A stretch of 35,108 bases of DNA from a virus (taxonomy: Duplodnaviria; Caudoviricetes). This document shows, one piece after another, positions 76 to 16,777 of the stretch. Below the pieces are notes generated by a model. The model saw nothing but the letters and a program-made list of their open reading frames with translations. It was not told where the DNA came from and searched no databases. The stretch's first letter is position 1. Each line of letters starts with the position of its first letter. The stretch spans positions 1 through 35,108 of the IMG/VR virus record IMGVR_UViG_3300037045_000078; one strand, written 5' to 3'. The translations under genes and the position numbers were made by a program.

Positions 76-3000
76 TTAAGGTGGAAACCGTAAAAAATCG
101 TTCTTCGTCGGTACCATCACCCCTTTTATCTGTCTGCTCATCTCCGATGAACGTATGAGCGGTAGCCTTCCCGCGAGGCCCGCTTCCATTACGGCCCTGT
201 TGTATCCGCCCTGCTTCTTGTATATCTTTGTCAACGACGCATTTGTCCTCTTCGGGTCTACGGCCCAGGCCCGCAACTCCTGGTAGATCTTGTCTCTTTT
301 TCGCTCAAATGCCTGCTCCTGCTGGTACATTTCGTTGTCGCGTTCCCGCGCTACCGATTGACGCGATCCTGGAAAACCGACGACCCGGGCGGCGGTTTCC
401 GCTCCCGTGGGCGTGAACGGTTTGGCGTCCCTGCCCCATACTGGTACCCTGCCCTTTTCAGTCGTCACGCCGGTCCTTGATTCCCGTATTGCCCGCAGAG
501 GATTCGCCAGCGCCGTCGGTAAGAGTTTTTCAACGGCCCTTCCTGGCTGACCGGAGGCAAGAAGGCTGTTCGCCTGAACGATGTCTTCGGCAACGCCGCC
601 GATTGCTCCTGTCAATCCCATGAGGCCCGTTGGGATGCCCAGGCCGATGCCGAGGGAGCCGGATATGTCAACACCGGCCAACCCGAAGATACCGCGACGT
701 CCGAGGATCTCCGCCCGGTCGCCAAGGTATTTTCTCGTCTTGTCCCAGACGAACTTGTCAACCCCTGTGGTGATGCCAAGCGTACGCAGCATGCCATTGA
801 TCAACCACAGCAGCTCGTCTTTGAACGGCCACGCGGCACCACCGGCAATGATCACAGGTGTGGCCAGCGCCCATGTAAACCCTACAATGTTCTGTTTCTT
901 TGCGCCGAGATCATACAGGAGCTGGACGTAATTGTGTCCGAAATTGCCGTACACGTACATGGCCTGGCCAACCTTGGCGGATACCGATGTGCCCTGCGCC
1001 CACTCCGGAAGGTTTGATTTGCCATACGCGGCATGGGCCTTGTCGCTGGCCTCGATCGCTGCCTTGTATGCTGCTTCTTGCAATTCTTCACCTTTCAGTC
1101 CTTCTTTCGCAAAACGCATTTTTGCCACGCTGTACGCCGCGAGGATCGTCGTGCCCCTGTTCCACTGCTCAGTCTTGCTGAACACGAACATGGCCACTTT
1201 CATCATCCGGTCCCACGAGCGTTCAAGACCTCCCTGCATGGAACCCAACGCATCCCTGGTGAGCTGCGGGGCGTCGTACCCTTCCCGGGTGATGCGCTCG
1301 GCTATGATCTGATCCTCTGCCTCCAGGGTCTTGCCCACCATGTGCTTCGCATAGGAACGGCTAGCACGAGCGATCGCTTTGTGCACCGTCACCATGTTCA
1401 CCTGCCCGCCACCGGCATACTGGTGGATAGACGCCGGAGCGGATGTCACCATGGCCGTCAGGTTGACAAAGGCAGACCGGGGATTGAACCCTAAGAATTT
1501 CAAAGTCGCAACTGCCTTTGCATACGCCATAACCCTGTCGGCGGTGTCGCTGTTTCTCAGGTTCTCCTCGATGTACCGCTTCGCGGTGTCGTAAGCCTTC
1601 GGTTCAGTTGCAGGGTCGATCTGCTGGAGTAATTCGGTCGCTTTCTGGGAAACCTCTCCCTTTGCCATGCCCCCGGCAACACCGGACGTATAGCGCAGGA
1701 ACGCCTCTATCGGGTCTTGTATGTAGCCCTGGACGACTCGCCCCTTTGGGTTACGGTGTATCTTGGTCGATTCGATACCGCGTTCGCGGACCATGTTCAC
1801 GGCCTGTTCGATAAGATCTTCGTTGAATTTAACGAGAAGGTCCGCGCTCGTCTTCTTTTTCATGCCTGTTACAGCGTAATCTATGGCCTTCTGCACATCG
1901 ATCGACCTGATGTTGAGGTAGACCGACTCGGGCAACTTCTGGAAATCAGATACCTTTATTTCCTGGTACCCTTCTTTTTCCAGTTCTGCCTTCCGCAGTT
2001 CGCTCCAGTATTTTCCGCCATGTTCCCGGATATACTGCCGGTCGCCGAAATCGGCTTCCTTGTATGCGGTAATGACTATCTTCCCGGTCTTTCTCAACCG
2101 TGGGAAGTAATACCCGCGCCATTCGTCCATGACCTGTAATGCCCCTATGATGGTCTGCCGCAGTTCGGCCTTAAAATCCTTGTGGGCCTTGCGGAAAAAC
2201 CGTTTATGGTCATTCCACCACTCTTCCGCCGTCTGTTCGGTGAATGCTTCCCGGGAGAAATGGATTGATTGTACCTCCACTCCTCCGGCGCGGCTGTGGC
2301 CCATCACGTAATTGATTCCGTCATGCCAGGGTAAGCCAGCGCGTTCCTGTCGCTCTTTCCCCGAGGCCCTCCAGAAACCATCAAATTCCTTCGTGGATCT
2401 CACCGTGAAAACGTGGAAATTTGTGGTGCCCTTGTCCAGCTCGAACGGATCTTCCTGGTAGCCTTCCTGTTCAAGTTTTTTGAGTAGCTCTTTCATGGGT
2501 GCCTGCCTGGCGTCGAGCATCTTGTCGAACGCTGCCCGGACTAAAATGGCCACGCGCTTCACGTCCTCCGAAACTTTCATATTCTTGACGCGATCCTCGA
2601 AGGTCCAGTCTCTATCTTTTACCCATTCGGTATCTGCTTCTATAAGGATGGACGTGAGTTGTTCATAGCCTTTCTTGTCTTTTTTGCGCAGATCCGCTAT
2701 TGCCTCGGATACGGTCGTAGCTTCCCCCACGTCGTTGAAATCGTAAAATAACTCGTGATACGTTTCCTGGCGGTGGTGGGCCATGACGTTGAAGAGCTGT
2801 TTCAACACCGGGTGCTCGTACCATAAGGGGTTCTTCAGCACCCGTTCGAGGAAGTGTGCGTGCGGGAGGTTCTCCGGCATGTGTGCGATTATGGTTGCCG
2901 CTGCCGCCTTTGCGTGGTCTCGAATCCACCCCTTGATCTCCAAAGGCGGAGCTTTGGGCTCCGGCGGGGCCATCGCCTCGATCTGGTGCAAGATGTCGTC

Positions 3001-6000
3001 AACGAACGTGCTGCCCGTGACAGATCCGTCCAGCTCCTTCTTGAAGTACGTCCCCGTGGTCGCCTTTGGCACGACTCCGGAATAGCTTCTCGCCTGGTCA
3101 ATCAGGTGGAGGATGTCAGCGTCCGACCACGTAAGGTTCGGAGCAATCCTTCTCAGCGCTGCCCGGATGATCCCGACGATTCTCGCCCATACCGGTGTGG
3201 CTTCCCGTGCCTCCGCCATGTGGGCGATGAACTCGCTGACGGCAACCCTGCGGTCATCCCTGTCGTTTAAGTCAAGCGGGAGCCTCAAGGTCCCCATTTT
3301 GTGGCCATAACCCTTGACGATGCGATCCATGAGCGGCGTACCCTGATATGCCCTCGCGATCTGCTGCCAGATAACGTCCACGTCGGCATTCCGGAGAATT
3401 GCGGTAATCCCCCGATGCCCGACTGCCTCGTGAATGAGGGTGGCGATCGCGGCCCGTGCGTTGGGGATCAAGTCGGCGATGATGTACGTGGTATCGGTCT
3501 CCTGATCGTAGGCCCCGAAGATGGTGTCTCCCTCCTGCACGTAGCGCATGAACCTGACCGGCAACTCACGGGCAGACTTTATAACCGTGACTTTCCCGAT
3601 GTTGACCCATTGTTTCAGCGGCAGCGCGAGGAACTGTTTCACCTGGTCCACGGAGAACCGTGGCGTTTTCGGTGGCTTAATATCAAAAGACAGATTGCCC
3701 ACGTCGGCCTGGGTAGTCAGCTTGACGAATATGGGTTCAACGGAGGGGTTTATCAAGCTCCGCTGATGTAGGCTCCCGCCTCCATCTACGATATCCAGAA
3801 GGGTAAGGCCGGCACTTCTGCCAAAGTTTGCAATATTATTTGCTTCCGGACCAAGGATAGCGTGTTGCGGCGCATATATGCCGATATTCGAGGCGTTCCT
3901 CCGTTCGGCTTCCTGGAGCAACGCTCGCTGTATTTCACCGCGTATAGGCAATAACGATTCAATGGTAATGGTGCTTATGAGTTTGTTTCGTACATCGAAA
4001 AAGCCAACGGTAATGTTGGGATCGTCGCGCTTGATGCCCGCTCTCCTGAACGCCAGGACAAGCAAGGCGGGGTTGGTGGCGGACATATTTTCGGTTTTTG
4101 TTATGGCAAATCGACGCTCTACGACCGGTATTTCCTCGGTTTGTTTGGTTTTTCGAGGCATTTTAGCGGTTTTTTCCGGTAGTGAGAAGGCCCCGTATTC
4201 CGCCGACGCGTATGCTTTTGGTGTGACGGCCATAACTCCGTGGACCGTTACGCCCGATCCCTGGGCAACCCTGAACAGTCGAACGCCCACTTTCTTGTCT
4301 TCCTCGGACAGCTCCGCGACGCCCGACGGATGGTTATGGATAAACCACACACCGGTTACGCCCTCGGTGTTGAGTGCTTGGCCTATTGCTATCACGGGGG
4401 ATACGATAGATGCACTCATGCTACCCCTGCTTATGCGGTGTACGCTGTGAACCGTGCCGTCGTCTTTGGTGAGGATTGCTGCGAATGTTTCCTGGGGATC
4501 GTCGAGAAGGTTGCGCGCTATCTCAGCAACATCGTCGCTATTGCTGACTTTTCGTGTTCCAGCGCGATAGCTGCCGATTCTTTCTGTGACAACTTCCTGT
4601 TGACGCGGTACGGGACCGGATTTTCGACGTGAAGATCGTCCAGGTGTATGGGTGTCAATATTAAATAATGTACCTTGTTCTTTCGATCTGTTGTCATAGC
4701 CTAGTGTACGTTCAGATATGCGGGTTGTCAACTGGCCACCCCCGCCTTCCACGTCAAAGATGGGGCTGATGGCCAGTATTTCTTTCATAACCGCGATCCC
4801 GTCGTCGCCGGTAGGGATGAATACCCTCGTTTTGTAGCTGATGCGCTCGATGAGGGCACCGCATTGTTCGAGCTGCGTCTCGAATCTCCACAAGGTTTCG
4901 CCGGTTACTTCGATCCGGTCCATACCCTGGGTTTTCACGCGCTTCAGCGTCCAGTCGTTCGCCAGAGTTATCGTTTCCCCGTTGTCCAGGATAGCGTTAC
5001 ATGCCTCTTCCGGAGTATACGCTGCGGTTGATTTATCAACGTTCAGCTTCTTCAGTACGCCATTGAGATTCTTGTCGGGGATCAGCCGGCCCAGCAGCTT
5101 TTCGCCCGTGTTGAGCTTGAGCCGCATCACCCTGACGTGTTCCTGGGGGAGCCTGTCCCATATAGGCAAGAGCGCACCGGTAACAAGGTGGATCCTCCTC
5201 GCTTTCGTCTTCGGCACCTTGTCGTGCTGTTCACCCCATATCGCCTCGGCCTGAGCCATGTCGTCAATCCGATCGTATTTTTCCTCGTCCCGGAGGTCTC
5301 TTGCCTCCACTACATTGACAGTGCCCCGGGGGCTCGTGAGGGTTACGACAGCCGTCACTTCGCCGGTACTGGTATTGGTCGTGATACGTTCCTTGTTTGC
5401 CGCCCATACAACGCCGCTTTTTTTGTTCACCACATATCCGGAGGCTGCCCACAGTTTACTTGTCCGAAAATCAACGGTTACAGCGTCTTCGGAGAGTTCG
5501 ATCTCGTTGTACTTTGTCTGCTCTCCCTGGGGACCGGTGTAAACTATTTCTTCCCGGGTCCGTTTCGCCCCCTTCGCTAAAATTGTTTCCATGCCCGCGT
5601 CGAGGGTGCCGTCTGACGCCGCCTTTTCGATGATCTGGTCAAGGTGGGCGTCGAAGGCGTTAAAAACTTCCTCTTGCCGGTCCACGGTCAGCGAAAGCAG
5701 CCTGTTCAAAAATTGGGTTATCTCAGGAATCTCGTCACGGAGATGACCCTGGTCGTCGGTCAGCCTCATACCCGTTTCCAGTTCGAATTCCGCCATAGAC
5801 ATATTCTCAATGCCACCGCGGAAAATGGTATGTATGAGCCGGATGAACGCCTGGCGTGCATGTGAATTTTCAAGGTTGTCTTTCAGCTTGAAGATACCCT
5901 GTGTCGCCGTGTCGCGCTGTCCCTTGGTGAGCGATCCCAGCTGTTCGAGCCGTCGCGCAATAGAGGAAATAAACCGTTTCTGCCCCTTCAGATTAGTTGT

Positions 6001-9000
6001 AACCAGGTGAACGTAGGGAGGCTGTTTCTGGTTGCTCCGGTGTGTCCGGCCCAAACCCTGGATAGCTCTGTCAGCCCTCCAGCCAGGCTGCAGTAAATAG
6101 TGGTGCCGTAGCCGCTGGTTCTTCTCTGTCTTGTCTGCGTGGAAACTTCTGCCGGTTCCAGCCGCGTCGGAAAAAACAAGAAGCTGTTTCTTATCATTCA
6201 TAAAAGCATGGATGTCGTTGAGCCCTTTCGCCTTGCTCCACCGTTCCACAACCCGCTCTTTCTCGCCCTCGTTGTTTGTTTTATCTACAAGCCTTTTCGA
6301 CCGGCCCGTTGCCTCCGCTGCCTTGTCAATGCCAAAATGCCGGATGATCATGTCAAGCGGCGCATCCGGCACCTTCAGCATGCCGAGCCTCCGGAGCAGC
6401 GCGTCGCGCACGGCCACGGCTTCCCGGTTGATAACGGGGTTTCCGCTGGAATCGACAACCAAACGGGACCGTATATTCCCGTTGTCGTCGGTGTACTCTT
6501 CGTATTGCTGGATCGGGAAGCTGTTTTCCAGGTAGTTCATCAGCCCCTCACGCGGGGTGAGATCCAGGTCTTCCAGGCGGTCGCCTTCCTCCCGCTTCGC
6601 CATCGCCCGGTCGGTCTGCGCTTCGTTGGTGTTGACGAGCTGCACGACGGCGGCGTCTCCCTCGGCGAGGTTCTTCTCTATGGCCCTAATGACTGTCGGG
6701 GTCTGCATGGACGTGATGATCTGGTTGAAAAACCGCTGATGTGCGCCCCAGAATGCCCCCATAACATTTTTTCTGGCGTTGCCGTTCCTGGTGACCACCT
6801 GACCGGTGTGGGTTGTCCCGGTAATCCCGGTGGCCCGGAGCGCGGCGTGGATGTTCTGCAGGACGATCTGCCATGACCTGGCCATTTCGTCGTAAATTGC
6901 CTTCTGGTTCTCGGTCAGCTCGTGCTCGATGGTTTCGTACTTAACCCCGTCAAAAGAAAGGTTCCGGGCAATATAGGATCCCATCGCCTTGAGCCCCTGG
7001 GCGATCATTTCCATGCCGGCGATACCCGCCCCGGAGATCTGCTCAATGAAATTCCGCTTGTTGGAAAAGGGTGTTCCCTTCCCCCACAATCCAAGGTGGT
7101 CGCAATAGGAAAGGTTGACAACTTCCGTTGCGCCGGTAGCTGACGCATACACGGTCCGCGAATTGTAGAGCCGCGACTGCAGCTCCACGCCCACCACCGC
7201 CTTCATGGACGGCTTTTTTGTTCCGCGCCTCCCCCTGGTAGACAATGCGTTTCCCATGTTGTGGGATTCGTCAAAGGCTATGACGCCTTCGAATTCTTGT
7301 CCTGCCCACTCTACGACGGGGTCGATCCGGCGCACCGCGCCTTTTTTGTACTTTAACGTGTCGTAGCTTATGAAAAGAATGCCCTCTTTTTGCTTAACGG
7401 GCTGGCCGAATTTCGTGCCGGCGTAATCGATTACCAAGTTCGGGTCCATGCCGAGGGCTATAAGGTCGCGCTTTGCGTCGTGGATAAGGTCCGTATTCTG
7501 GCTTATCCATAGAGCCCTGCGCCGGCCCCGGTTCCAGTTATCGAGGATGATGCCGGCGATCTCCCGGCCCTTGCCTACTCCGGTGCCGTCACCGATAAAG
7601 AAACCCTTGCGGAATGTGTGGAACGTTTTGTTTTCCTGGCCCCCGCTGGTTGCAACGTTGCCTTTTGCGTCAAGATAGACGCCGGAGTCGAGGACTTCCC
7701 CGTGGGCCTGCCCGGCCATGGTGATGGCTTCGAGCTGGACGTCGCTTAATGCACCGGTTTCAGCAAGTTTCTTGTCGATATTCGGCACATAACTCGTTTT
7801 TGGAGCCTTTACGGTGGCCATCGCCGCACTTTCCACAAGTTCCGCCGGGTGCGGCTGCGCCCCTTCAATTTTTATGGAAGGCCTGTATTCCTCGAAGATG
7901 TTTCCCGATTCGAGGTCTTCATCGGTGTATGCTTCGGTCTGTTGTACGGTAAGGGCTGTTTCGGGGGTTAGTAGTCTGCCGCTTCCAGCATGCTCGTCAG
8001 CTGGTCTACTACCCTCCACGCCAGGTCTTCCGCTGATATCGTCGGCAGTTCTTTCTGATCCGCCAGGTCGCCGTCCCTCTGGAGCAGTTTCCAGGCCCGT
8101 TTCGGTTCCAGCCCCGCCATCTCCTCGAAGAACGGGTGTACGTACTGACCCCGGACGTTGTTCAGGGGTACCATGCCCGCGTTCCACTGTTCCTCTACCA
8201 GCTGGAGGCAATACAGCATCGACGGGTCGGGATCCTTGAGAAACTTCTTCGCTGCCCGGTTGAGCGGATGGTTGTTCTGTGACACTGCTTCTCGCATCGC
8301 GCGCTCCTTTCAGGAGGGCAACGGCATCCTTGATGTCGCTGACTTCCTCTTTTATTAGTTTAGCATTCGACTTCGCTTTGTCAATCACGATCAAACGGTT
8401 GTCATAGGTGGTGCCGTATTTTTTGTAGCCCTCGCCGGAGATGGTGATATCGACGATTACGTCATTGGTGACATCGATGTTGTCCAGCCACTCGTTGAAG
8501 GTTTTCGATTCGCCGAACAACCCCTTGCCAGTCAGCACCACGAGACGCCCGCCTGGCTCCAGCCGTGATAACGCCTGGCCAATATGCCTTATGAGGTTCT
8601 CAGGACTTCTTCGCCCCTGCATCCGGCCCGCCGAGGATGAAAAGGGCGGGTTCATGATGATTACGGAAGGCTTTATGTCGTCCGGAAGGATATTGTCGAT
8701 CTGCTCGCCGTTCTCGGTAAACACCTTCTCGAAATTCAGCTGTCTTAACAGGCTTGCCCTCCGCTGCGAAAGTTCGTTGACGTACACCTTTGCGCCTGCG
8801 TTCCGGGCAAATACCGCGAGGCCGCCCACGCCTGCCGATGGTTCCAGTACCGTTTCTCCCGGCGTGATGTTTCCCAGCCACGCCATGAGATATGCGAGGT
8901 CCGGCGGCGTGGAAAACTGTTGAAACTCGTCCATTTCTTTCGTCCGAAAACCATGTTGAGAAGGAATTTTGTCAAGGATCTGCTCTCGGATTTTCGTGAT

Positions 9001-12000
9001 AGCGTCTTGTGCGTCCATGATCGGCGTTGTTGATTTGCTCTGGCCAGGGTCATACGCCTTGTGGCCCTGTCCGAGATAACGGTTAACCCCCAACTCCATG
9101 GCGTCAAAAAGATCTTTCCATGTCAGTGCGCCGCTGGCAATCGTGCCGCCGTATGCATCTTCGCCCCACTTCATGAGCTGTTCGCGGGTAAAGGATTCCC
9201 CGTTGGCCAGGGCAGCGTCAACCTTGTCCATAACGGCGCGAGCGGCCCTTGTCTTGTCACCATCCATACGTTTTTCAATTGGCGTGTCTGCCTGTGTCTC
9301 TGGTGTGGCCGATGCTTGTGCGTTCTCGTCCACCGGGACAAACCGAGGATCTTTACGCTCTACATCGACCTGTATCCCCTCCCTGGTAGGAATAAGGCCC
9401 ACCGGTTCGGTGATCCCGATGTTTCCCTCCATGATGGAGCGGACGCCCTTGTCGTCCTCGAATACTTCCTGTCCGTATTTGTTCTTGCCGATAGACTTCG
9501 GTATAAGTGCTCCCCTGTCTGTGGTAAGGGGTGATTTCTTCGATTTCCACGGCGTCAGGGACCAATGGTCGTATTCGGCGTCGATCGCCTTGATGATCTT
9601 TTCCGCCGGGTCCTCGGTTCCATAAAAAGACCAAACCTTTTTCGGACCATACCAGTTACCTTTCGCTTGTTTGATCGCGTCCTTGTATGCCCTGGTATTT
9701 CCGCTTAAATTCCAAACCGGGTGTCCGTGCTTGGTTGTCGTTTTCGTGAGCGTAAGTTCCACGCTTTTCAGCTTTTCGTGTGCGTCCGATGTGTCGGTGA
9801 CGGTTCCCGTTTCCGGTGCCGGCGTAGTTTGCTGTTGCGGTGGCTGTGCTTCTGTTTTCTTCGGCCCCTGTATCTTCTCCGCTTCTTCCGGGTACTCTTT
9901 GGCCCACGCGTCGAACGCATCCTGATACTTCTGCGCGTCTTTCTCATAGCTTTCCGCTGTCCGTAAATGGCCGGCCTTTATTGAATCCTTTCTTGCCCGG
10001 CCAGCTGCCTCCCGTGAGTTCCGTGCCTGTCTTCCAGTATAAGAGATCATGCTGAAAAGAGTTTCCGGGATTTGCCAACGGTTATCAAAATAGATGTCTT
10101 TCACGAGCTTACCGGTAAACGGTTCTGTTTCGTGTTGGATGTCGGTCGCCCTGGACGCCGTAATGCTCACGCCATTGTCTGTTTCGATTTCATAGGTGAC
10201 GGTATGTGTTGATTGCCCGCCGAAAATAGACTGCATGGTGTAGCCGCCTACCACTTTAATAACGCCGTGTCGTCCCCGGAGAGAAGGACTGTGGTACGTG
10301 TCGGTAATGACGATCCGGTCGCCCTTTTTGTATTCTTCCTGCTTCGGCGTCTCTTTGGGTGCCTCCGTTTCCGGTTTTTTGTTAAAAAGGTCGTGCCGGC
10401 GGGCGTATTTGAGTACGGCCTCGGCAAAGCTCTTCTTGTCAAATGTGTCCAGGTATACCTTTTGTGATTGCGACAGCGGCTTGTTCGAGCCTAATATCTC
10501 GTCTACTACCTCGCCGTATGCCTCGTTTGTCGCCTTTTCGATGGTAGCGAGCAAGGCTGTTTCGCTGTTGTCCGGGTTGAGATATGGCTTTATCTTTTCG
10601 AGTGTTTTGTCACGGATGGCCTCGGAAAGAGACATATCATGCGCTATGCCTTGGGGTGCTTCCGCTGGTTTCCCTGCCTCTTCCGCCAACTTCTTGTCGA
10701 TGGCCTCGACGATCTTTACCGTTGGCCAGCCGCCCTCGAACGGTACGCCCAACATCAAAGCATACATACGGGCCTTAATAAGATGATCGCGCCAGTCATC
10801 CTCTGGATCTATGGTTGGTTTTTTACCCAGGGCGATCTGTCCGGCCACTTCCCACGCCTGTTTTTCCGACTGAAATATCCGTACTGTCGGCAAGAATTCC
10901 ATGGAATCGTTGTCCCTGATGGAAACGGAGAAATTATTTCCGTTGATGTTTCTAGCGACGAATATCTCAAGGTTGTTTTTCTTGTCCGGTATAGTACCAA
11001 GAAGCTCGGTCGGGCTAAAAGGTGGCTTCTTTGCTCCGGTTTCTTCCGGTGCCGCGCCCATTTCCCCCTTCTTGTAATTGGTTGGGCTCCAATGATGTCC
11101 GCCCATGGTGGATACTTTTATGTACCCGTCGCCCTGTACGTGTTCGACAATGCCAGGTTTCAATACATCCGTGTCGCGGATCGGGACGACGTAATGGCCG
11201 ATCTTGAAGGAGGATTGCCTGGCTTCCGGTGTTTCCTTCCCCTCCATGGCCCTTGACGCCGCCCGCTGTTCAGCCGTCGGCATACGCAAATTGCCTGTTT
11301 GAACCCCCAATATATCCTTTATTTTGGTGGCCTTTTCGGTTTCTCCCCGCTCGATCGCTTCCTTTATGGTCCTCTTGATCTCGTCAACTATAGCTTCGTA
11401 ATCGGAGAACCTCGGGCCTACCATCTTTTCGATCTGTGCGGCCAGCTCGGGGTCAGCGTCTTCCATGGCATCCGCGAGCGAATTGGAAACAGGCCCCCAT
11501 GAGAACCCGTCTTCCGCTGGTCCTTCTTCTATCTCTTTGGTAGGGGCTTCCGTTGTTGCTTGATTTTCCACCGGTGCTTTCTCGCTTCGTTCCTCGGCAT
11601 ATTGCGCCGCTGCTGCCTCGTAAAACTGTTTTGCTTTCCCTTCCGGCAGCGCGTCAACGGCACCAAAAAGGTACGCCTTGACATCGACGCCCTTTGCCGT
11701 GGCCCGCCGTGCGATCTCCGCCAGGATCGGCTTGAGCTTTTCGTACAGTTCGGGCTTTATCCCCGCCGGCTTGCCGTAATTAATGCGGCTATCGGATACT
11801 CTTCCCTCTTCTTCTTCAATAAATTCGTTGATAATATCAAAAGCCTCCGTTATCAGCTCATTGGTCGATTTCTTCGTTAGATCTTCTGCTGGTGCAGCGT
11901 TTGCTTCTGCCTCTGCCTTTTGCTTTGCTGCGAGGGCTTCCTGAAGTTTCTTTTTCTGCTCTTCTTCCTTCTCCCGCTCGGTCTGAAACACCGGTTTCGG

Positions 12001-15000
12001 GCGCAGGAATAGCTCGGCCTTCGGTTCTTTCCCCGGCGTAAAACTCCCCTGCTTTACCGGCTGATTACCGGAAAGGTTGAAAATGTCGTCGGTGTTGAAT
12101 AGTTCCCCGTCGGTTGTGGGGGCTGGTGGTGTTTCTGTTCTGGATTTCTTTACTTGTTCTTTGAGGGCCGCAAGTCTTTCAGCAAACTCTCCGCCAGTAA
12201 TTTGATTGTTAATTGCTGTTTCAAGGCTGCTAACAATTTGGCCGATTTCGGTGTCACTGAACCCTTCTCCATGTAATTCCTCCTTTATACCTATAATATT
12301 TATTTCTGTGGTGTCAATGATCTCGTCAATGCTGCTTTCCGGGATAAACCCGTCGGCCTTGAGCTGGTCGTCGGTCAGCGGGATCTCCGCCGTTTCAACC
12401 TCCGGCCCCTTCCCGCTCTTGTTCTGAAAGCGCGCCATTTCATCGGTTATAAGATCGAATACTTCCGATTCAGTCCATTCTACCGTTCCCTGTTCCTGTC
12501 CTTCCAAACCCGAGGGCGGTAACTTCATGGGTATTGCCCCATTGTTCATGGCCTCGTTGAATAGCTGGACAAAGCTGTTCCAACGCGAGTCACTGCCGCC
12601 GGCAAGATCCTGTCCTTTCCGCATCTTCTGTAATAGGGGCAAAAAGTACCGGTATTGCTTAAAAAACGTGTAGTACGGGAAGGGGGTGTCTTCGGTGATG
12701 GCCCTGGCTTCCTTGGTTTTCTTGGGCTTCCCTTTCTTCGCCTCGGCTGCCGCCGTGACGTCTTCTTCCTTGGTTGTTTCGTGGATACCCTTCTTGGCTG
12801 GTGCCTTAACGCCGAATTGTTTCGCCAGGTCCGGGTATTTCGCGAGGATCTCCGGGGGCACCGGCTTCTTGAGCTGCAATGCTACCGCTACCGTGGTTTC
12901 GTTCCATTCCTCGCCCGCTTTCCCTTTTTGCTGATTCGCCCCGATCTCAAGCCCGGCCAGCCAGTTTCGTAAAATGTTGGCTTCTTTGTTCACGGTTGCT
13001 GATAGGTGTCCTTGTGTGCGTTTTTCTAATTCAGCGCGAAAGTCATGTATGGCCCCGATCAAGGCATCGTCGCGGGTATCATATTGGTGGTATTCGTAAA
13101 TACTCGGGTGCCAGCCATGGCCGCCGTTGTCAATCTGGACACTATAACCATACGTCCAGGTACCGTTCGGGGCTTTGCCCAGGATTATGTGGTTCTGCGG
13201 ATAGTGCCCTTTTTTCGATGGTGGGGCCTCGATCTCTTCGGTTTCAAACCGATATTCCGATCTCCCCAGGTCGTCTCGTTTCTTTTCGGTAAATCCCCAT
13301 ATTGTACTTGCAATCTCGTCCGCCATGGCGTTGTCAGCGTCCGTGTGGGTTAAACCTTCCGGCATTTTCGTGGTTGACATTGCACCAGCGTAAGGATGTT
13401 TTCTCTTGATCGCTTCAACTTCCTTGGAAATATCCCCGCTTTGTTTGCCAGTAAAGGCTTTCTGAGAGCCAATACCCATCCTTTCGCGCTCTTTAACGTT
13501 GCGCATCAGATCGTCACGGGCTCCCTTTACCGTCATGGCAACACCGATCACGTCCTTATGCGGCCCTTCGGTGACAGTCGCCCTGTACCCGCCCTTGTAC
13601 GTATCTCCGGTGGTAATTTTCCTGATAGAGTGCGCTGGAAGGTGTTCCGTCTTGACCACATCGTCGGAGGAAGATTCCCCTGCCTCTTCCTCGCCAGTGT
13701 CGCTCGCGAGTGAGAGTATTTTCTTTGACTCTTCTATTTCTTTTTCATCGAGGGCTACATATCCACCGGGTGTAACGGCATTTTCATTAGTTCTGGCCGC
13801 ACCAAGCTCTAAAATCTCGTCTGAAGGTAACGTTGAGGGCGGTTCAAAACGTTCGGGCGCTGTCATCTCACCGAGTTCGTCCAGGGGTGCGTTCGGTGGC
13901 ATGGCTGATTCTTCAGCTGTTTTTTGCGCCTCCTGTGCCATCCGTATCCCGTCTGCCATCCCGGCAGGAAGGTCTGCCATGCGGGCATGGTCAAGGATGA
14001 TACGGTCCATGCGCTGTACTGCCGGGTGATCCGGGCCGAGTACGTTCGCCGTCTTGTCCCTCAAAACTTCTGCCTGCACCGTGTTTATCTGTTTCGATTC
14101 GAGCAGCCCCTTCATCTGTTCAACGATGGCTGTCGTTCTCTGATCTCCTATGACCGGTCCAGCCGGTGCGGTTGGCCCTGTCTGTGGTCCAGGCTGCGGC
14201 CTTTGTTGCCCTGGCTGTGGTGCGGTAGGCTGCCCTGTGACCGGCGGTTGTGTTGCCGGCTGTCCGCCTAATTCGGTTGTAGCTGGCGCGCCGGTTTGTT
14301 CTTTCAGCTTCGCAGCTTCGTTGTATGCTTTCCTGGTAATGGCCCCGGAAGCTCCGCCAATTGCAAAACCGCCCACGGCCCCGGCAGCTGCACCGTCCAC
14401 GGCCTGGAGAAATTGCTTCTTTGTCCACAGGTCGTTCGGGTCAATGCCCCATTGTTCTGCATACGTCTGGAAGAATTCTTCCGCTCCTTCGCCAAGCATC
14501 TGTGTTAATGCCGATTGGCTTATGCGGTTCCATAGTCCTTTTTTGGCGAATTCGGCCACTTCTGGACCGAATTTCAACAGTTTTGCGGTGGCCTTTTCTG
14601 TTCCAAGCTCTTCAAATTTACTTGCTATAAAGATAGCGGCTGCCGCTCGAAGCGGGTCAAGCTCGTTCGTTTCCCCTTTTTCGAGGCGTTCTATCTGCCC
14701 GCCGAGGATCTCACCGGCCTCCATCATGCCGATGGGCACATCCATGGGTTTTAGCTTTGCCCACTCGACGAGGTAAGTAAGTGCCTTCTTGCCGAGGCTC
14801 GTTTGCGCCACTTTCGGGGCAATTTGCGCCATCTGCACAGCCCGGCCCTGGACCATGAACGGTGCGGTTATTGCCACTTGCGCGCCCATCTGCCCTATTG
14901 CGCCAGCTCCCCACTTGAGCCCGCTCTCTATGCCATCTATTTCAAAGACTGAACCGACTTCCGGCTCAACCTTCTTCAATGGCGTGTCCCAATAGTGCCG

Positions 15001-15429
15001 AACGTTTTTACCGAAGCTGGTCGTTGCCCCTTCCTTTGGCAGTCCAGGGGGTGGCTCATATGTTGGCCCGTTCGGGTCAGCTTTCGGTATGGGTGTCCCT
15101 AAATGTTCCGGTCCGATCTCGTCTATGTCCCATTCAGGGGGTGAACCTTTGTACTGGTCACCTAACCGTCCCAGGTATTCAATGGCAGAACCAATGCCTT
15201 TGTTTGCCTGGAGCCATCCGCGAGCGACGCCTTTGACGCCCTCCCTCGTAATCCCTACCATGCCCTCGCCTATCTTCCGGTACGTGCTTCGGTCATCCGT
15301 GTCGGGGCCAAACGTTTCTGTTGTTCCAGCCAGTTCGTCGAGAAAACCACGCTTCGCCGGTTTCTCGGCCTGTTTGCCTACCGGTTTGTCAATTCCTATG
15401 AGTTCGTCAAGAAAGCTGTCGTTCGCCAC
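76..15429 (-). CDS. Giant polyvalent virion/ejection protein (DarB-like): N6-adenine MTase + Strawberry-notch SF2 helicase + JAB/RadC + zincin-like motif + LPD-like helical C-terminus
   Basis: 5117-aa ORF, GTG start with AGGAGG SD. Motifs QQFSTPP, VLEPSAGVGGLA, IIMNPPF, GDGTGVGKGRE, IAFDESHN, YASATGA, QGLGRTHRSNQ, HNHPSGxxxxSxxD, HEAVGH. It is the last gene of the virion module, where podoviral large internal proteins lie. Confidence 0.9.
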   Translation of the reverse strand: MANDSFLDELIGIDKPVGKQAEKPAKRGFLDELAGTTETFGPDTDDRSTYRKIGEGMVGITREGVKGVARGWLQANKGIGSAIEYLGRLGDQYKGSPPEWDIDEIGPEHLGTPIPKADPNGPTYEPPPGLPKEGATTSFGKNVRHYWDTPLKKVEPEVGSVFEIDGIESGLKWGAGAIGQMGAQVAITAPFMVQGRAVQMAQIAPKVAQTSLGKKALTYLVEWAKLKPMDVPIGMMEAGEILGGQIERLEKGETNELDPLRAAAAIFIASKFEELGTEKATAKLLKFGPEVAEFAKKGLWNRISQSALTQMLGEGAEEFFQTYAEQWGIDPNDLWTKKQFLQAVDGAAAGAVGGFAIGGASGAITRKAYNEAAKLKEQTGAPATTELGGQPATQPPVTGQPTAPQPGQQRPQPGPQTGPTAPAGPVIGDQRTTAIVEQMKGLLESKQINTVQAEVLRDKTANVLGPDHPAVQRMDRIILDHARMADLPAGMADGIRMAQEAQKTAEESAMPPNAPLDELGEMTAPERFEPPSTLPSDEILELGAARTNENAVTPGGYVALDEKEIEESKKILSLASDTGEEEAGESSSDDVVKTEHLPAHSIRKITTGDTYKGGYRATVTEGPHKDVIGVAMTVKGARDDLMRNVKERERMGIGSQKAFTGKQSGDISKEVEAIKRKHPYAGAMSTTKMPEGLTHTDADNAMADEIASTIWGFTEKKRDDLGRSEYRFETEEIEAPPSKKGHYPQNHIILGKAPNGTWTYGYSVQIDNGGHGWHPSIYEYHQYDTRDDALIGAIHDFRAELEKRTQGHLSATVNKEANILRNWLAGLEIGANQQKGKAGEEWNETTVAVALQLKKPVPPEILAKYPDLAKQFGVKAPAKKGIHETTKEEDVTAAAEAKKGKPKKTKEARAITEDTPFPYYTFFKQYRYFLPLLQKMRKGQDLAGGSDSRWNSFVQLFNEAMNNGAIPMKLPPSGLEGQEQGTVEWTESEVFDLITDEMARFQNKSGKGPEVETAEIPLTDDQLKADGFIPESSIDEIIDTTEINIIGIKEELHGEGFSDTEIGQIVSSLETAINNQITGGEFAERLAALKEQVKKSRTETPPAPTTDGELFNTDDIFNLSGNQPVKQGSFTPGKEPKAELFLRPKPVFQTEREKEEEQKKKLQEALAAKQKAEAEANAAPAEDLTKKSTNELITEAFDIINEFIEEEEGRVSDSRINYGKPAGIKPELYEKLKPILAEIARRATAKGVDVKAYLFGAVDALPEGKAKQFYEAAAAQYAEERSEKAPVENQATTEAPTKEIEEGPAEDGFSWGPVSNSLADAMEDADPELAAQIEKMVGPRFSDYEAIVDEIKRTIKEAIERGETEKATKIKDILGVQTGNLRMPTAEQRAASRAMEGKETPEARQSSFKIGHYVVPIRDTDVLKPGIVEHVQGDGYIKVSTMGGHHWSPTNYKKGEMGAAPEETGAKKPPFSPTELLGTIPDKKNNLEIFVARNINGNNFSVSIRDNDSMEFLPTVRIFQSEKQAWEVAGQIALGKKPTIDPEDDWRDHLIKARMYALMLGVPFEGGWPTVKIVEAIDKKLAEEAGKPAEAPQGIAHDMSLSEAIRDKTLEKIKPYLNPDNSETALLATIEKATNEAYGEVVDEILGSNKPLSQSQKVYLDTFDKKSFAEAVLKYARRHDLFNKKPETEAPKETPKQEEYKKGDRIVITDTYHSPSLRGRHGVIKVVGGYTMQSIFGGQSTHTVTYEIETDNGVSITASRATDIQHETEPFTGKLVKDIYFDNRWQIPETLFSMISYTGRQARNSREAAGRARKDSIKAGHLRTAESYEKDAQKYQDAFDAWAKEYPEEAEKIQGPKKTEAQPPQQQTTPAPETGTVTDTSDAHEKLKSVELTLTKTTTKHGHPVWNLSGNTRAYKDAIKQAKGNWYGPKKVWSFYGTEDPAEKIIKAIDAEYDHWSLTPWKSKKSPLTTDRGALIPKSIGKNKYGQEVFEDDKGVRSIMEGNIGITEPVGLIPTREGIQVDVERKDPRFVPVDENAQASATPETQADTPIEKRMDGDKTRAARAVMDKVDAALANGESFTREQLMKWGEDAYGGTIASGALTWKDLFDAMELGVNRYLGQGHKAYDPGQSKSTTPIMDAQDAITKIREQILDKIPSQHGFRTKEMDEFQQFSTPPDLAYLMAWLGNITPGETVLEPSAGVGGLAVFARNAGAKVYVNELSQRRASLLRQLNFEKVFTENGEQIDNILPDDIKPSVIIMNPPFSSSAGRMQGRRSPENLIRHIGQALSRLEPGGRLVVLTGKGLFGESKTFNEWLDNIDVTNDVIVDITISGEGYKKYGTTYDNRLIVIDKAKSNAKLIKEEVSDIKDAVALLKGARDARSSVTEQPSAQPGSEEVSQGSRPVDAVLPPAGRGTVERGHGTPEQRPGSVRTPVLRGDGGAGTETGLETAPEGRRPGGSERTADDISGRPGVEGSRPADEHAGSGRLLTPETALTVQQTEAYTDEDLESGNIFEEYRPSIKIEGAQPHPAELVESAAMATVKAPKTSYVPNIDKKLAETGALSDVQLEAITMAGQAHGEVLDSGVYLDAKGNVATSGGQENKTFHTFRKGFFIGDGTGVGKGREIAGIILDNWNRGRRRALWISQNTDLIHDAKRDLIALGMDPNLVIDYAGTKFGQPVKQKEGILFISYDTLKYKKGAVRRIDPVVEWAGQEFEGVIAFDESHNMGNALSTRGRRGTKKPSMKAVVGVELQSRLYNSRTVYASATGATEVVNLSYCDHLGLWGKGTPFSNKRNFIEQISGAGIAGMEMIAQGLKAMGSYIARNLSFDGVKYETIEHELTENQKAIYDEMARSWQIVLQNIHAALRATGITGTTHTGQVVTRNGNARKNVMGAFWGAHQRFFNQIITSMQTPTVIRAIEKNLAEGDAAVVQLVNTNEAQTDRAMAKREEGDRLEDLDLTPREGLMNYLENSFPIQQYEEYTDDNGNIRSRLVVDSSGNPVINREAVAVRDALLRRLGMLKVPDAPLDMIIRHFGIDKAAEATGRSKRLVDKTNNEGEKERVVERWSKAKGLNDIHAFMNDKKQLLVFSDAAGTGRSFHADKTEKNQRLRHHYLLQPGWRADRAIQGLGRTHRSNQKQPPYVHLVTTNLKGQKRFISSIARRLEQLGSLTKGQRDTATQGIFKLKDNLENSHARQAFIRLIHTIFRGGIENMSMAEFELETGMRLTDDQGHLRDEIPEITQFLNRLLSLTVDRQEEVFNAFDAHLDQIIEKAASDGTLDAGMETILAKGAKRTREEIVYTGPQGEQTKYNEIELSEDAVTVDFRTSKLWAASGYVVNKKSGVVWAANKERITTNTSTGEVTAVVTLTSPRGTVNVVEARDLRDEEKYDRIDDMAQAEAIWGEQHDKVPKTKARRIHLVTGALLPIWDRLPQEHVRVMRLKLNTGEKLLGRLIPDKNLNGVLKKLNVDKSTAAYTPEEACNAILDNGETITLANDWTLKRVKTQGMDRIEVTGETLWRFETQLEQCGALIERISYKTRVFIPTGDDGIAVMKEILAISPIFDVEGGGGQLTTRISERTLGYDNRSKEQGTLFNIDTHTPGRSSRRKSGPVPRQQEVVTERIGSYRAGTRKVSNSDDVAEIARNLLDDPQETFAAILTKDDGTVHSVHRISRGSMSASIVSPVIAIGQALNTEGVTGVWFIHNHPSGVAELSEEDKKVGVRLFRVAQGSGVTVHGVMAVTPKAYASAEYGAFSLPEKTAKMPRKTKQTEEIPVVERRFAITKTENMSATNPALLVLAFRRAGIKRDDPNITVGFFDVRNKLISTITIESLLPIRGEIQRALLQEAERRNASNIGIYAPQHAILGPEANNIANFGRSAGLTLLDIVDGGGSLHQRSLINPSVEPIFVKLTTQADVGNLSFDIKPPKTPRFSVDQVKQFLALPLKQWVNIGKVTVIKSARELPVRFMRYVQEGDTIFGAYDQETDTTYIIADLIPNARAAIATLIHEAVGHRGITAILRNADVDVIWQQIARAYQGTPLMDRIVKGYGHKMGTLRLPLDLNDRDDRRVAVSEFIAHMAEAREATPVWARIVGIIRAALRRIAPNLTWSDADILHLIDQARSYSGVVPKATTGTYFKKELDGSVTGSTFVDDILHQIEAMAPPEPKAPPLEIKGWIRDHAKAAAATIIAHMPENLPHAHFLERVLKNPLWYEHPVLKQLFNVMAHHRQETYHELFYDFNDVGEATTVSEAIADLRKKDKKGYEQLTSILIEADTEWVKDRDWTFEDRVKNMKVSEDVKRVAILVRAAFDKMLDARQAPMKELLKKLEQEGYQEDPFELDKGTTNFHVFTVRSTKEFDGFWRASGKERQERAGLPWHDGINYVMGHSRAGGVEVQSIHFSREAFTEQTAEEWWNDHKRFFRKAHKDFKAELRQTIIGALQVMDEWRGYYFPRLRKTGKIVITAYKEADFGDRQYIREHGGKYWSELRKAELEKEGYQEIKVSDFQKLPESVYLNIRSIDVQKAIDYAVTGMKKKTSADLLVKFNEDLIEQAVNMVRERGIESTKIHRNPKGRVVQGYIQDPIEAFLRYTSGVAGGMAKGEVSQKATELLQQIDPATEPKAYDTAKRYIEENLRNSDTADRVMAYAKAVATLKFLGFNPRSAFVNLTAMVTSAPASIHQYAGGGQVNMVTVHKAIARASRSYAKHMVGKTLEAEDQIIAERITREGYDAPQLTRDALGSMQGGLERSWDRMMKVAMFVFSKTEQWNRGTTILAAYSVAKMRFAKEGLKGEELQEAAYKAAIEASDKAHAAYGKSNLPEWAQGTSVSAKVGQAMYVYGNFGHNYVQLLYDLGAKKQNIVGFTWALATPVIIAGGAAWPFKDELLWLINGMLRTLGITTGVDKFVWDKTRKYLGDRAEILGRRGIFGLAGVDISGSLGIGLGIPTGLMGLTGAIGGVAEDIVQANSLLASGQPGRAVEKLLPTALANPLRAIRESRTGVTTEKGRVPVWGRDAKPFTPTGAETAARVVGFPGSRQSVARERDNEMYQQEQAFERKRDKIYQELRAWAVDPKRTNASLTKIYKKQGGYNRAVMEAGLAGRLPLIRSSEMSRQIKGVMVPTKNDFLRFPP
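3080..3660 (-). other. Zincin-like metallopeptidase domain of the giant protein
   Basis: GAYD..TYIIAD..TLIHEAVGHRGI (HExxGH at about 3415-3432), later SEFIAHMAE as a possible third ligand. Boundaries approximate. Confidence 0.65.
3785..4520 (-). other. JAB/RadC domain followed by a degenerate second JAB-like copy
   Basis: PQETFAAIL..HNHPSGVAELSEED has the full JAB metal motif (about 4295-4340). The second unit VGFFDVRNKLI..GLTLLDIVD keeps the RadC pattern but lacks HxH. Confidence 0.75.
4518..4697 (-). CDS. Nested +1-frame 59-aa ORF, probably leaderless (MTTDRKNKVHYLILTPIHLDDLHVENPVPYRVNRKLSQKESAAIALEHEKSAIATMLLR)
   Basis: Translated by hand. ATG lies 5 nt after a -10 box of a near-consensus promoter; TAG at 4518-4520. 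Confidence 0.5.
   Translation of the reverse strand: MTTDRKNKVHYLILTPIHLDDLHVENPVPYRVNRKLSQKESAAIALEHEKSAIATMLLR
4703..4731 (-). promoter_or_regulatory. Intragenic sigma70-type promoter
   Basis: TTGACA (4726-4731) - 17 nt - TACACT (4703-4708). Confidence 0.7.
4750..7900 (-). other. Strawberry-notch-family SF2 helicase/ATPase region
   Basis: LSDVQLEAI, Walker A GDGTGVGKG (about 7567-7593), Walker B DESH (about 7261-7272), SAT, SDAAGTGRSFH, QGLGRTHRSNQ (6028-6060). Boundaries approximate. Confidence 0.9.
7968..8297 (-). CDS. Nested +1-frame 109-aa protein in the MTase-helicase linker
   Basis: AAAGGAG SD before ATG and its own promoter. Globular helical-looking sequence with G/C-ending codons (AAC CTC AAG CAG GAG TTC), while the host frame reads as R/G/S/P filler. 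Confidence 0.8.
   Translation of the reverse strand: MREAVSQNNHPLNRAAKKFLKDPDPSMLYCLQLVEEQWNAGMVPLNNVRGQYVHPFFEEMAGLEPKRAWKLLQRDGDLADQKELPTISAEDLAWRVVDQLTSMLEAADY
8310..9240 (-). other. N6-adenine DNA methyltransferase domain
   Basis: Motif I LEPSAGVG (about 8825-8848) precedes motif IV NPPF (8641-8652), i.e. gamma order. Boundaries approximate. Confidence 0.9.
8357..8384 (-). promoter_or_regulatory. Intragenic sigma70-type promoter with extended -10
   Basis: TTGACA (8379-8384) - 16 nt - TAAACT (8357-8362), with TG at the extended -10 position (TGcTAAACT); 59 nt upstream of the nested ATG. Confidence 0.7.
12150..12272 (-). CDS. Nested +1-frame 40-aa peptide (MEKGSVTPKSAKLLAALKQQLTIKLLAESLLKDLRPSKNK)
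   Basis: Translated by hand. Perfect AAAGGAGG-aattac-ATG; TAA at 12150-12152; Leu/Lys amphipathic helix pattern. Confidence 0.6.
   Translation of the reverse strand: MEKGSVTPKSAKLLAALKQQLTIKLLAESLLKDLRPSKNK
12290..12317 (-). promoter_or_regulatory. Possible intragenic promoter
   Basis: TTGACA (12312-12317) - 16 AT-rich nt - TATAGG (12290-12295), directly before the SD. The -10 is imperfect. Confidence 0.45.
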
Positions 15430-15442
15430 TGTTGTCCTCCTG

Positions 15443-16777
15443 TCACTGCACGCCCTTTAAGCGTTTCCACGCCTGCTTTATGGTGTCCTCGCTGTAGCCC
15501 ATTTTGACCAGTGCGTCATACATGGCTTTTTGACCGAGTTTGCCCGTATTTGTTGTAAAATAGTCCGTAGCCCCGGTAATGTTGTGGTCTTTATTAGCCT
15601 TGTAATCCTGCTTTCCGCCGATAACTCCGCTACCGCCTTTGGGCTGCTTTCGGTACTTCGCCCACTGGTCGGGGTAGTCTTCCTGCATGAGCGATTCGAG
15701 GCTGTTGATCTGCCCCTGGATCGTGGCCTTCGCTGCCTCAACCTGGTCCTGGGGTATGATTTGCTGCGTGATAGGGTCAACGCCTTTCTGTATGTTGGCC
15801 ATGGATTTATAGAGGCCGTTGAGCTGGCCCATGTGCATCCTGAATTCCCTCGCGTCACCTGCGCCACCGCCACCACTTCCACCGCTATCTGGTTTGTGTA
15901 TCCGGTATGGTGCGCCGAAAGGTATGTCGTGCTGGCCCGTCTGGGGGTTCCACTGAAACTTCTGTTGCTGGTTAGAACCGATTGGCTTCTCGACGTACAT
16001 TGACGGCGTCGGCTGTTTCCCCCCGATGCTGGTGGGCTTCTGGACAACCTCAAATACGCCGTCTTTGTTCCAGCGCACAAGACCGTCGCCGCCGAATTTC
16101 AGGAAGCTCCACTCGCCCTTTTGGGTGATGTCTCCTGGTCTAATCTGTCCGTACTTCTGTGTAATCCACGGGTTTGAGTTCCATGCTTTCATGGCTCCCT
16201 GGGGCGATATCTTCGCAATGGCGAAAATGTTATCAAATTCGGCCTTTTGCAGTCTGTTTGCTTCATCAAAACGCCCGTTTGCCAAAAGGGTGTCGTGTAT
16301 CTTCATCATCATTTCGCCGCGCTTCATGAGTACGTCTGGGTGAAGGGGTGGCCTCACAACGGGATCGTTGCCTTGCAGCTCCATGGGTCCCGGAGTGACC
16401 CGTTGTCCTGGTTGGGCTTGAATGTCCTGCGGTGCAGGCTTCTGCACTGACATCCCCGCTCCGCTATCGACGTTCGGTGCACCGATGACATTTTCCACTG
16501 GGGTTGCTGCCGGTGTTCTCACCGGCAAGGGTTGTTGTGGCGGCTGCGCTCCTATGGCCGGGGCTGCCGGCATACTCCCCACTGCTTTCCGGTATTCGTC
16601 TACGTGGCCTTGGATAGTCTTCAACAGTTCTTCCTCTCGCCGAACTTTCTTGAGGCCCTGGTCTGCTATCTCTCTTCTTAGTGCAAATTCTTTATTTCGG
16701 TTCTCTCGCTCGTCGAGCCGGGGAATCTCTGAGTTCAGCGCGTGGGTTGCTCCAATTGCCATACTTTTCCAGTCCAT
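15443..16777 (-). CDS. Putative internal virion/DNA-ejection protein (444 aa)
   Basis: Real start is MDWKSM at 16777 (GGAGG SD, TGATG overlap with the upstream stop), not 17200. Coiled-coil and P/Q-rich segments; lies between tail genes and the giant gene. Confidence 0.7.
   Translation of the reverse strand: MDWKSMAIGATHALNSEIPRLDERENRNKEFALRREIADQGLKKVRREEELLKTIQGHVDEYRKAVGSMPAAPAIGAQPPQQPLPVRTPAATPVENVIGAPNVDSGAGMSVQKPAPQDIQAQPGQRVTPGPMELQGNDPVVRPPLHPDVLMKRGEMMMKIHDTLLANGRFDEANRLQKAEFDNIFAIAKISPQGAMKAWNSNPWITQKYGQIRPGDITQKGEWSFLKFGGDGLVRWNKDGVFEVVQKPTSIGGKQPTPSMYVEKPIGSNQQQKFQWNPQTGQHDIPFGAPYRIHKPDSGGSGGGGAGDAREFRMHMGQLNGLYKSMANIQKGVDPITQQIIPQDQVEAAKATIQGQINSLESLMQEDYPDQWAKYRKQPKGGSGVIGGKQDYKANKDHNITGATDYFTTNTGKLGQKAMYDALVKMGYSEDTIKQAWKRLKGVQ

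Follow-up and report, generated by a model that had tools for sequence, protein, structure and literature searches.

Proteins that combine a methylase-helicase dyad with a RadC domain, with P1 DarB as their archetype, have been described as polyvalent proteins; the main text of that description names Strawberry-notch variant and RadC JAB domains and treats the activity of RadC as an open question (Iyer et al. 2017, PMC5512222). Here we analyze the whole of a 35,108-nucleotide (nt) viral record (IMG/VR IMGVR_UViG_3300037045_000078; Caudoviricetes), referred to as the window, which carries a giant DarB-like gene of 5117 amino acids (aa) on its minus strand (76..15429). Like the proteins of that main text, its product is a giant multidomain protein encoded beside virion genes, with an N6-adenine methylase followed by an SF2 ATPase; it differs in that its helicase is of the Strawberry-notch type rather than the classical SWI2/SNF2 type. 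By its methylase motifs, an SF2 module C-terminal to the methylase, further conflict domains and virion-gene neighbors, it fits the polyvalent methylase-helicase proteins. Written inside this gene, on the same strand and in its +1 frame, are three small open reading frames (ORFs): A (12150..12272, 40 aa), B (7968..8297, 109 aa) and C (4518..4697, 59 aa). A sequence-only reading of the window had placed them there and taken them for real, unannotated genes. All three are indeed present. Judged by their patterns of sequence change, B is a gene beyond doubt, the case for C is strong, and A is a probable gene.

Three nested reading frames and their signals

Four complete homologues of the giant gene, 78–80% identical in nucleotides, were codon-aligned with it; the five genomes are mutually related, and pairwise counts among them are not independent. 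Among 50 same-strand alternative-frame ORFs of at least 30 aa, only A, B and C keep their start, stop and open frame in all four relatives. The ratio of nonsynonymous to synonymous change (pN/pS) in the +1 frame is 0.73 for A, 0.33 for B and 0.70 for C, below all of the 212, 190 and 206 overlapping background windows, respectively, whose medians lie near 1.7. Over B, the giant frame has a pS of 0.06 and a pN/pS of 1.41. Over A, its pN/pS is 0.53, so the giant frame is still constrained there, in a stretch with no recognized domain. Third-position sites are variable at 15 of 41 in A, 11 of 110 in B and 23 of 60 in C, compared with 59% gene-wide (binomial p = 0.004 for A and 0.001 for C).

Codon shuffling places these frames against chance. 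The giant gene contains two promoter-plus-ORF units, whereas none arose in any of 150 codon shuffles at two thresholds, and 3 of 150 had one at the loosest threshold. Two ORFs are led by a Shine-Dalgarno site (SD) of at least six matches, a number equaled in 3 of 300 shuffles. An ATG-initiated ORF of at least 109 aa, by comparison, appeared in 131 of 300. The three frames are therefore unusual in their signals and not in their lengths. With frames intact in four of four relatives, selection shifted to the +1 frame, and such triplets rare in codon shuffles, the proposal of real small genes inside the giant gene is well supported.

Each ORF had also been credited with a perfect TTGACA followed by a spaced −10 box. 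This is so for B and C, which score 10/12 as sigma70 promoters and are the best in the window, and not for A. The other 14 promoter-like matches score 9/12, and the total number of such matches is not above that in shuffles. The −35 of B (8379..8384, minus strand) is formed by the I-D-K codons of the methylase and is kept in all five genomes; after a 16-nt spacer comes an extended −10, TG-n-TAAACT (8357..8365, minus strand), whose hexamer is TACAGT in three relatives. The −35 of C (4726..4731, minus strand) is also kept in five of five, though the three preceding bases vary, and a 17-nt spacer separates it from TACACT (4703..4708, minus strand), which reads TAAACT or TAAGCT in relatives. Both −10 hexamers are of the form TAnnnT in all five genomes while varying among the variants of that form. 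Since the −10 of C ends 5 nt before the ATG, its mRNA is predicted to be leaderless, as had been suggested from its placement.

The SDs of A and B are strong, again as first described. That of A (12279..12285, minus strand) has seven matches, lies 6 nt from the ATG behind an A/T-rich stretch, and is kept in five of five genomes; that of B (8304..8310, minus strand) has six matches, lies at the same distance, and is written in the giant-frame L-K/E-G codons. The 11 remaining sense-strand TTGACA hexamers of the giant gene have no valid −10, in line with the original impression that about ten such hits had no convincingly spaced one. Thus, within the window, separate regulation is predicted for B and C and unsupported for A. 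No strong terminator was found after the nested ORFs. The idea that all three lie in interdomain linkers is right in part: the −35 of B stands within methylase codons and its SD and ATG just after them, the second half of C overlaps the JAB start, and A falls in a domainless but constrained stretch.

A fourth nested gene was considered near 13270–13090 (minus strand), where giant-frame pS is low, and was rejected, its +1 frame being broken in all four relatives. The reduced giant-frame synonymous change across 13090–13270 is thus accompanied by no kept alternative ORF, and perhaps reflects recombination.

ORF B and its relatives

B occupies giant codons 2378–2487, in the linker between the N6-adenine methyltransferase domain (8296..9267, minus strand; NPPF at aa 2260, with Pfam and PHROG methylase matches) and the Strawberry-notch-type SF2 helicase/translocase (5587..7896, minus strand; AAA_34 at E 6e-94 and Helicase_C_4 at E 3e-81). 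We assembled 82 methylase-helicase loci, namely the window, 78 viral contigs and three plasmids, which form 59 clusters; the methylase motifs STPP and NPPF are invariant or nearly so across 52 rows. A B-position ORF was taken to be a +1-frame ORF of at least 90 aa that starts 70–100 nt past the methylase I-D-K. Such an ORF occurs in 53 clusters, two of which were dropped: L027, which has no SD and is Arg/Pro-rich, and L043, which has a TTG start and no SD. In the resulting 51 of 59 lineage clusters the ORF starts 79–97 nt past I-D-K, and 43 of these are profile-matched.

This position is held across methylases that are 37–63% identical and loci of about 34–67% G+C, and the distance from the methylase stays constant even where the linker reaches 595 aa. 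An SD of at least four matches precedes 49 of the 51 B starts, compared with 15% of 5503 background ATGs, a figure that carries a small bias because the starts were chosen partly by SD. All 51 lineages have an open giant frame here, and none has an open third frame. What the giant frame encodes over B is of low complexity (hydrophobic fraction 0.11 versus 0.32). It reads as a spacer, and B is therefore the main coding frame in this region.

The deep B profile matches at the B position in 61 of the 82 loci. Of the other 21, five are short-linker enzymes, two are divergent, and 14 belong to a single subtree. Those 14 (L018, L050–L052, L070, L072–L079 and L086) carry an acidic ORF of 113–124 aa with an SD at the exact B position, either a diverged B or a replacement. 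In a quick tree, B is missing from one clade of five short-linker, mostly stand-alone methylase-helicases. At the I-D-K site, a −10 of at least 4/6 is found in 10 of 17 clusters with a perfect −35, compared with 1 of 42 with an imperfect one and 8 of 179 control sites. Those 10 clusters are scattered on the tree, forcing at least three changes. Across the 59 giants, 16 nested promoter-plus-ORF units were counted, versus 2 in shuffles.

The product of B is predicted to be all-helical, and models of it form a helical domain (predicted local distance difference test scores of 81.5 and 82.5; AlphaFold2, 82.5). A Foldseek search of the model against the PDB and viral models returned nothing at E ≤ 0.001. 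The best matches by structure comparison have Z scores of 4.2 and 4.1, a root-mean-square deviation of 3.7, and 88 and 84 aligned residues, none reaching Z of 5. By sequence, only designed helical proteins appear, at E ~0.003. No Pfam or PHROG family was found for A, B or C, and none of 52 B-position proteins matches TnpV (PF14198) at E ≤ 0.1. An atlas search, useful as a lead only, places B at 0.91 to an unnamed cluster and C at 0.89 at most. The notion of B as a strongly acidic DNA mimic is not supported, the median net charge being −6. Seventeen matches came from a profile search over 1.84 billion representatives; two long ones (P0005 and P0015) are repeat artifacts and were dropped, and not all of three partial ones were used. 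In the protein collection, relatives of B had been called on contigs of at most 4.1 kb only. Given its distribution and predicted fold, we regard B as an old, folded family, unnamed so far. B may have been engulfed when the two domains fused or have arisen later.

The nested arrangement extends beyond phages. A Methylomonas plasmid giant that lies beside traF, topoisomerase III and traD holds an unlisted nested B (L009:3683-4024; NZ_CP064652.1). The plasmid record lists the giant gene alone, in a feature table known to be incomplete.

A context-free search for B over 401 genomes of the putative host's phylum recovered 16 B matches, spread over 15 genomes. Methylase-helicase genes contain two of them and a different ORF of 418 aa contains one; the other 13 are free-standing among chromosomal genes such as those for adenylosuccinate synthetase, peptide deformylase, NikR and Ppx. 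Eleven of the free-standing genes form one clade, which includes a copy in the metagenome-assembled genome (MAG) that holds an 86% identical relative of the phage; the other two are separate. One of the two keeps a TTGACA promoter and, by eye, a relic of the methylase frame upstream. In the free-standing copies the host-equivalent frame contains 1–16 stops, which implies that the open giant frame over nested copies is selected. The free-standing genes fall inside the nested diversity in a weak tree (116 columns, midpoint root), which suggests that B was captured from phage by bacteria. The 418-aa ORF, which lies beside a transposase-like gene (L230:2280-3536; G230:C109), has no Pfam match and contains an intact nested B, and is possibly a decayed giant kept for B. 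By eye this short ORF resembles a DdrB-like ParB.

ORF C, ORF A and the giant gene

C (giant codons 3578–3637) runs into the start of a RadC-like JAB domain whose HNHPS motif is intact (4195..4593, minus strand). We compared 53 distinct JABs that form part of long ORFs with 1060 control positions. A +1 ORF led by an SD or a promoter stands at the start of 12 of these domains versus 26 of the controls, and a promoter is present at 7 (6 of 52 without the window) versus 2. A Pro-rich motif ending in Tyr, defined post hoc, occurs at 15 of 53 versus 53 of 2120, and C has this loose Pro/Tyr motif in common with JAB-adjacent peptides of other phages. Counted by hand, a C-like peptide accompanies 22 of 51 tandem JAB modules versus 0 of 19 stand-alone JABs, and its presence is unclustered on the JAB tree. 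A profile made without the window's clade ranks five C proteins above 953–1000 of 1000 shuffles, in an alignment that was built jointly. C has no homologues among called proteins, and no relatives were detected outside its own clade. The sequence evidence for homology between C and the other JAB-linked peptides is moderate at best. C as a mimic of the RadC N terminus was considered and rejected, because 636–889 of 1000 shuffles scored equally well.

Downstream of the JAB lies a second conserved domain (3760..4122, minus strand), by eye a degenerate JAB copy with no Pfam match. A domain of this kind comes after 51 of the 53 embedded JABs and after none of the 19 stand-alone ones. The pairing of a JAB with a degenerate JAB-like domain brings to mind active/inactive MPN pairs.

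A (giant codons 1053–1093) would encode a basic peptide, with 9 K/R and 3 D/E. The TTGACA upstream of it (12312..12317, minus strand) is kept in three of four relatives and lost in one, and three relatives have no more than a 3/6 match at 18 nt. We consider A a probable real peptide, known from one clade, whose partner and promoter are unsupported. Other giants hold further small frames. A basic +1 ORF of 46–55 aa with an SD recurs in three distant giants (L023, L034 and L037, near giant codons 393, 790 and 499), a further hidden family. Two others share a +1-nested basic ORF of 50–82 aa with an SD of 6–7 (L015 and L029, near codons 861 and 809). Unique promoter-SD-ORF units of 52–58 aa occur in the N-terminal parts of L024, L030 and L070 (near codons 893, 746 and 675), positioned like ORF A.

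The giant gene is the last of a portal-capsid-adaptor-tail module and is whole in the four relatives. The window as such is the virion module of a podovirus-like phage, with a P22-like portal, capsid and SU10 adaptor beside the giant gene. The 5117-aa product contains the adenine methylase, the Strawberry-notch SF2 helicase, the RadC JAB, the second JAB-like domain and, further on, an HExxGH motif, probably of a metallopeptidase (3415..3432, minus strand). The region of this motif has no Pfam match, and presumably corresponds to what is labeled MPTase. The C terminus has a weak DarB-like PHROG match (E 6e-5). Three of the four viral relatives are classed as proviruses, none of the four has a tyrosine integrase, and the 86% relative is found on a contig of 4.8 kb in a Syntrophorhabdus MAG; the phage is likely a temperate phage of the Syntrophorhabdus group. 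No cultured phage in the GenBank collection that was searched covers 80% of the methylase-helicase query. By analogy with P1 DarB, as presented in the main text of PMC5512222, the giant protein would be packaged into virions and delivered by injection. The two genes that precede the giant gene share an apparent overlap of 424 nt (16777-17200, minus strand). Shorter ORFs in relatives suggest that the true start of the 585-aa ORF upstream of the giant gene is further downstream.

Competing explanations and known parallels

With a probability of roughly 45%, we favor the reading that B and C are domain-linked antidotes or partners that hold off the adjoining enzyme module, the methylase-helicase in the case of B and the tandem JAB in the case of C. 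It is favored because of a position fixed through deep divergence and varied G+C, absence from short enzymes, promoters that would work independently of the giant gene, and orphan chromosomal copies. Transcription of the late operon would, through the SDs of B and A, yield these two alongside the giant protein, and co-made B could hold the fresh enzyme inactive until it is packaged. From their internal sigma70 promoters, B and C would be made without the giant protein, in the prophage or just after injection, and the small proteins made alone might then silence the enzyme, whether the injected copy or one brought in by a superinfecting relative. In bacteria that acquired it, B may be retained as an orphan antidote. 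The sequence-only reading had likewise proposed that the small genes travel with their effector modules, which is borne out across distant phages for B with the methylase-helicase and for C with the tandem JAB, and not for A.

Several observations weigh against the antidote reading. The linkage of a nested gene to its module is partly automatic, since inheriting a module brings along any gene written inside it. Short stand-alone methylase-helicases occur without B, and only 2 of the 16 context-free B matches adjoin a methylase-helicase; with 13 free-standing and one in a different ORF, B can evidently persist with no supposed target nearby. A sigma70-like promoter is found in 11 of 51 B lineages and in none of the other 40, so that the constant feature of B is its SD, while the promoter is an addition and separate transcription optional. 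For C, 29 of 51 tandem JABs have no recognizable peptide, and the 22 that do were hand-picked with a motif set after they had been seen. No match emerged when C was compared profile to profile with two distant peptides, a C-only profile failed to retrieve these two, and a held-out C-type candidate ranked 4th of 2036 at E 2.2. As to A, no hexamer with A2 and T6 stands 16–18 nt from its TTGACA in the window, where the promoter scan lists none, and A with its flanks matches none of 168 other loci.

The nested genes may instead be real and act apart from the neighboring domains, as moron-like anti-defense, host-takeover or superinfection-exclusion factors lodged in overlap-tolerant linkers and read early or in the lysogen. 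The free-standing B genes with no methylase nearby and the B nested in another ORF fit such factors, as do the additional nested ORFs of related giants, some forming small basic families and others unique and promoter-led, and the rank of the internal promoters as the window's best. Host-directed factors generally turn over faster, however, and B keeps its position over divergent methylases; C-type units concentrate at JAB starts, not at random giant positions, and most B lineages have no promoter. On this balance we consider moron-like factors unlikely, if still deserving of serious attention. A stoichiometric role in serving the giant protein strikes us as decidedly improbable; the small proteins would then be translated from its late mRNA and act as chaperones of its folding, packaging or ejection, or as small internal components of the virion. 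Such a role would account for an SD in 49 of 51 B lineages with no promoter in 40, for the absence of B from short, presumably unpackaged enzymes, and for the basic character of A and several other nested peptides. It leaves unexplained the giant-independent promoters, the leaderless C and the 13 chromosomal B genes, and a plasmid giant also has B. Both ideas retain weight because embedding forces co-inheritance and most context-free B matches have no enzyme nearby.

That one or more of the ORFs are chance frames, kept open by conservation of the giant frame, is plausible for A only and slightly for C, and very improbable overall. Of 107 opposite-strand ORFs, six likewise keep start, stop and frame in four of four relatives, so such conservation alone is no proof. 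Giant-frame pS as low as that over A occurs in 4 of 212 background windows, and as low as that over C in 13 of 206, in five related genomes whose pairwise counts are not independent. For B, every test excludes chance, and A and C both show depressed third-position variation and a kept SD or promoter. We give scarcely any credence to a role of the +1 frames in cis, either as frameshift tails that end the giant protein early or as leader ORFs that restart downstream domains from the internal promoters. The promoters do point into the helicase and the JAB, but in the five close genomes a +1-frame stop precedes the ATG by 4–10 codons in B and C and by 0–4 in A, and no giant-frame ATG or GTG with an SD of at least five follows the B stop in 51 of 51 lineages. 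Moreover, B is predicted to fold and exists alone, and C is unlike the N terminus of stand-alone RadC.

Returning to antidotes, a broader proposal, tentative and on the doubtful side, is that injected polyvalent proteins are self-contained cassettes, each enzyme domain carrying at its boundary its own +1-frame antidote gene, often promoter-led, which the giant frame reads through as a spacer. Prophages might then express antidotes from a silent late gene as kin immunity, and hosts might have captured B more than once as a chromosomal defense against injected anti-restriction enzymes. If B and C are antidotes, they would account for how a phage can produce and time a DNA-modifying enzyme with no harm to itself, and would supply specific inhibitors of two domains that are poorly understood. 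Because gene callers retain a single frame, the old and widespread B family and the JAB-linked peptide class are missing from annotations. Low-complexity linkers in polyvalent proteins can now serve as a searchable mark of hidden genes, the chromosomal B copies become candidates for new counter-defense, and each nested gene can be removed with no change to the giant protein.

The main text of PMC5512222 makes no mention of "overlap" and uses "nested" and "reading frame" for other matters. Our literature searches, which excluded supplements and covered little of the subscription literature, turned up no account of genes nested within those for polyvalent or DarB-like proteins. Look-ups of the B sequence and of the JAB-linked peptides likewise gave nothing. 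Nested +1 genes and polyvalent proteins are each known; their combination was found in no paper.

Two known systems offer the closest parallels to the nesting. In phage lambda, Rz1 is embedded out of frame inside Rz, with its own start, and the two products act together. The nested ORFs resemble Rz1 in being contained entirely in a larger gene, in its +1 frame, and in having a start of their own; they differ in that the window has three per gene, two with internal promoters, in a 15-kb enzyme gene and with nothing to hint at a function in lysis. The second parallel is with type II toxin-antitoxin and polymorphic toxin-immunity pairs, together with orphan immunity genes. As in those pairs, a small protein is genetically tied to an enzyme domain (B and C, not A) and has free chromosomal copies (B). 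Unlike in those pairs, the gene for the candidate partner lies within that of the enzyme and not next to it.

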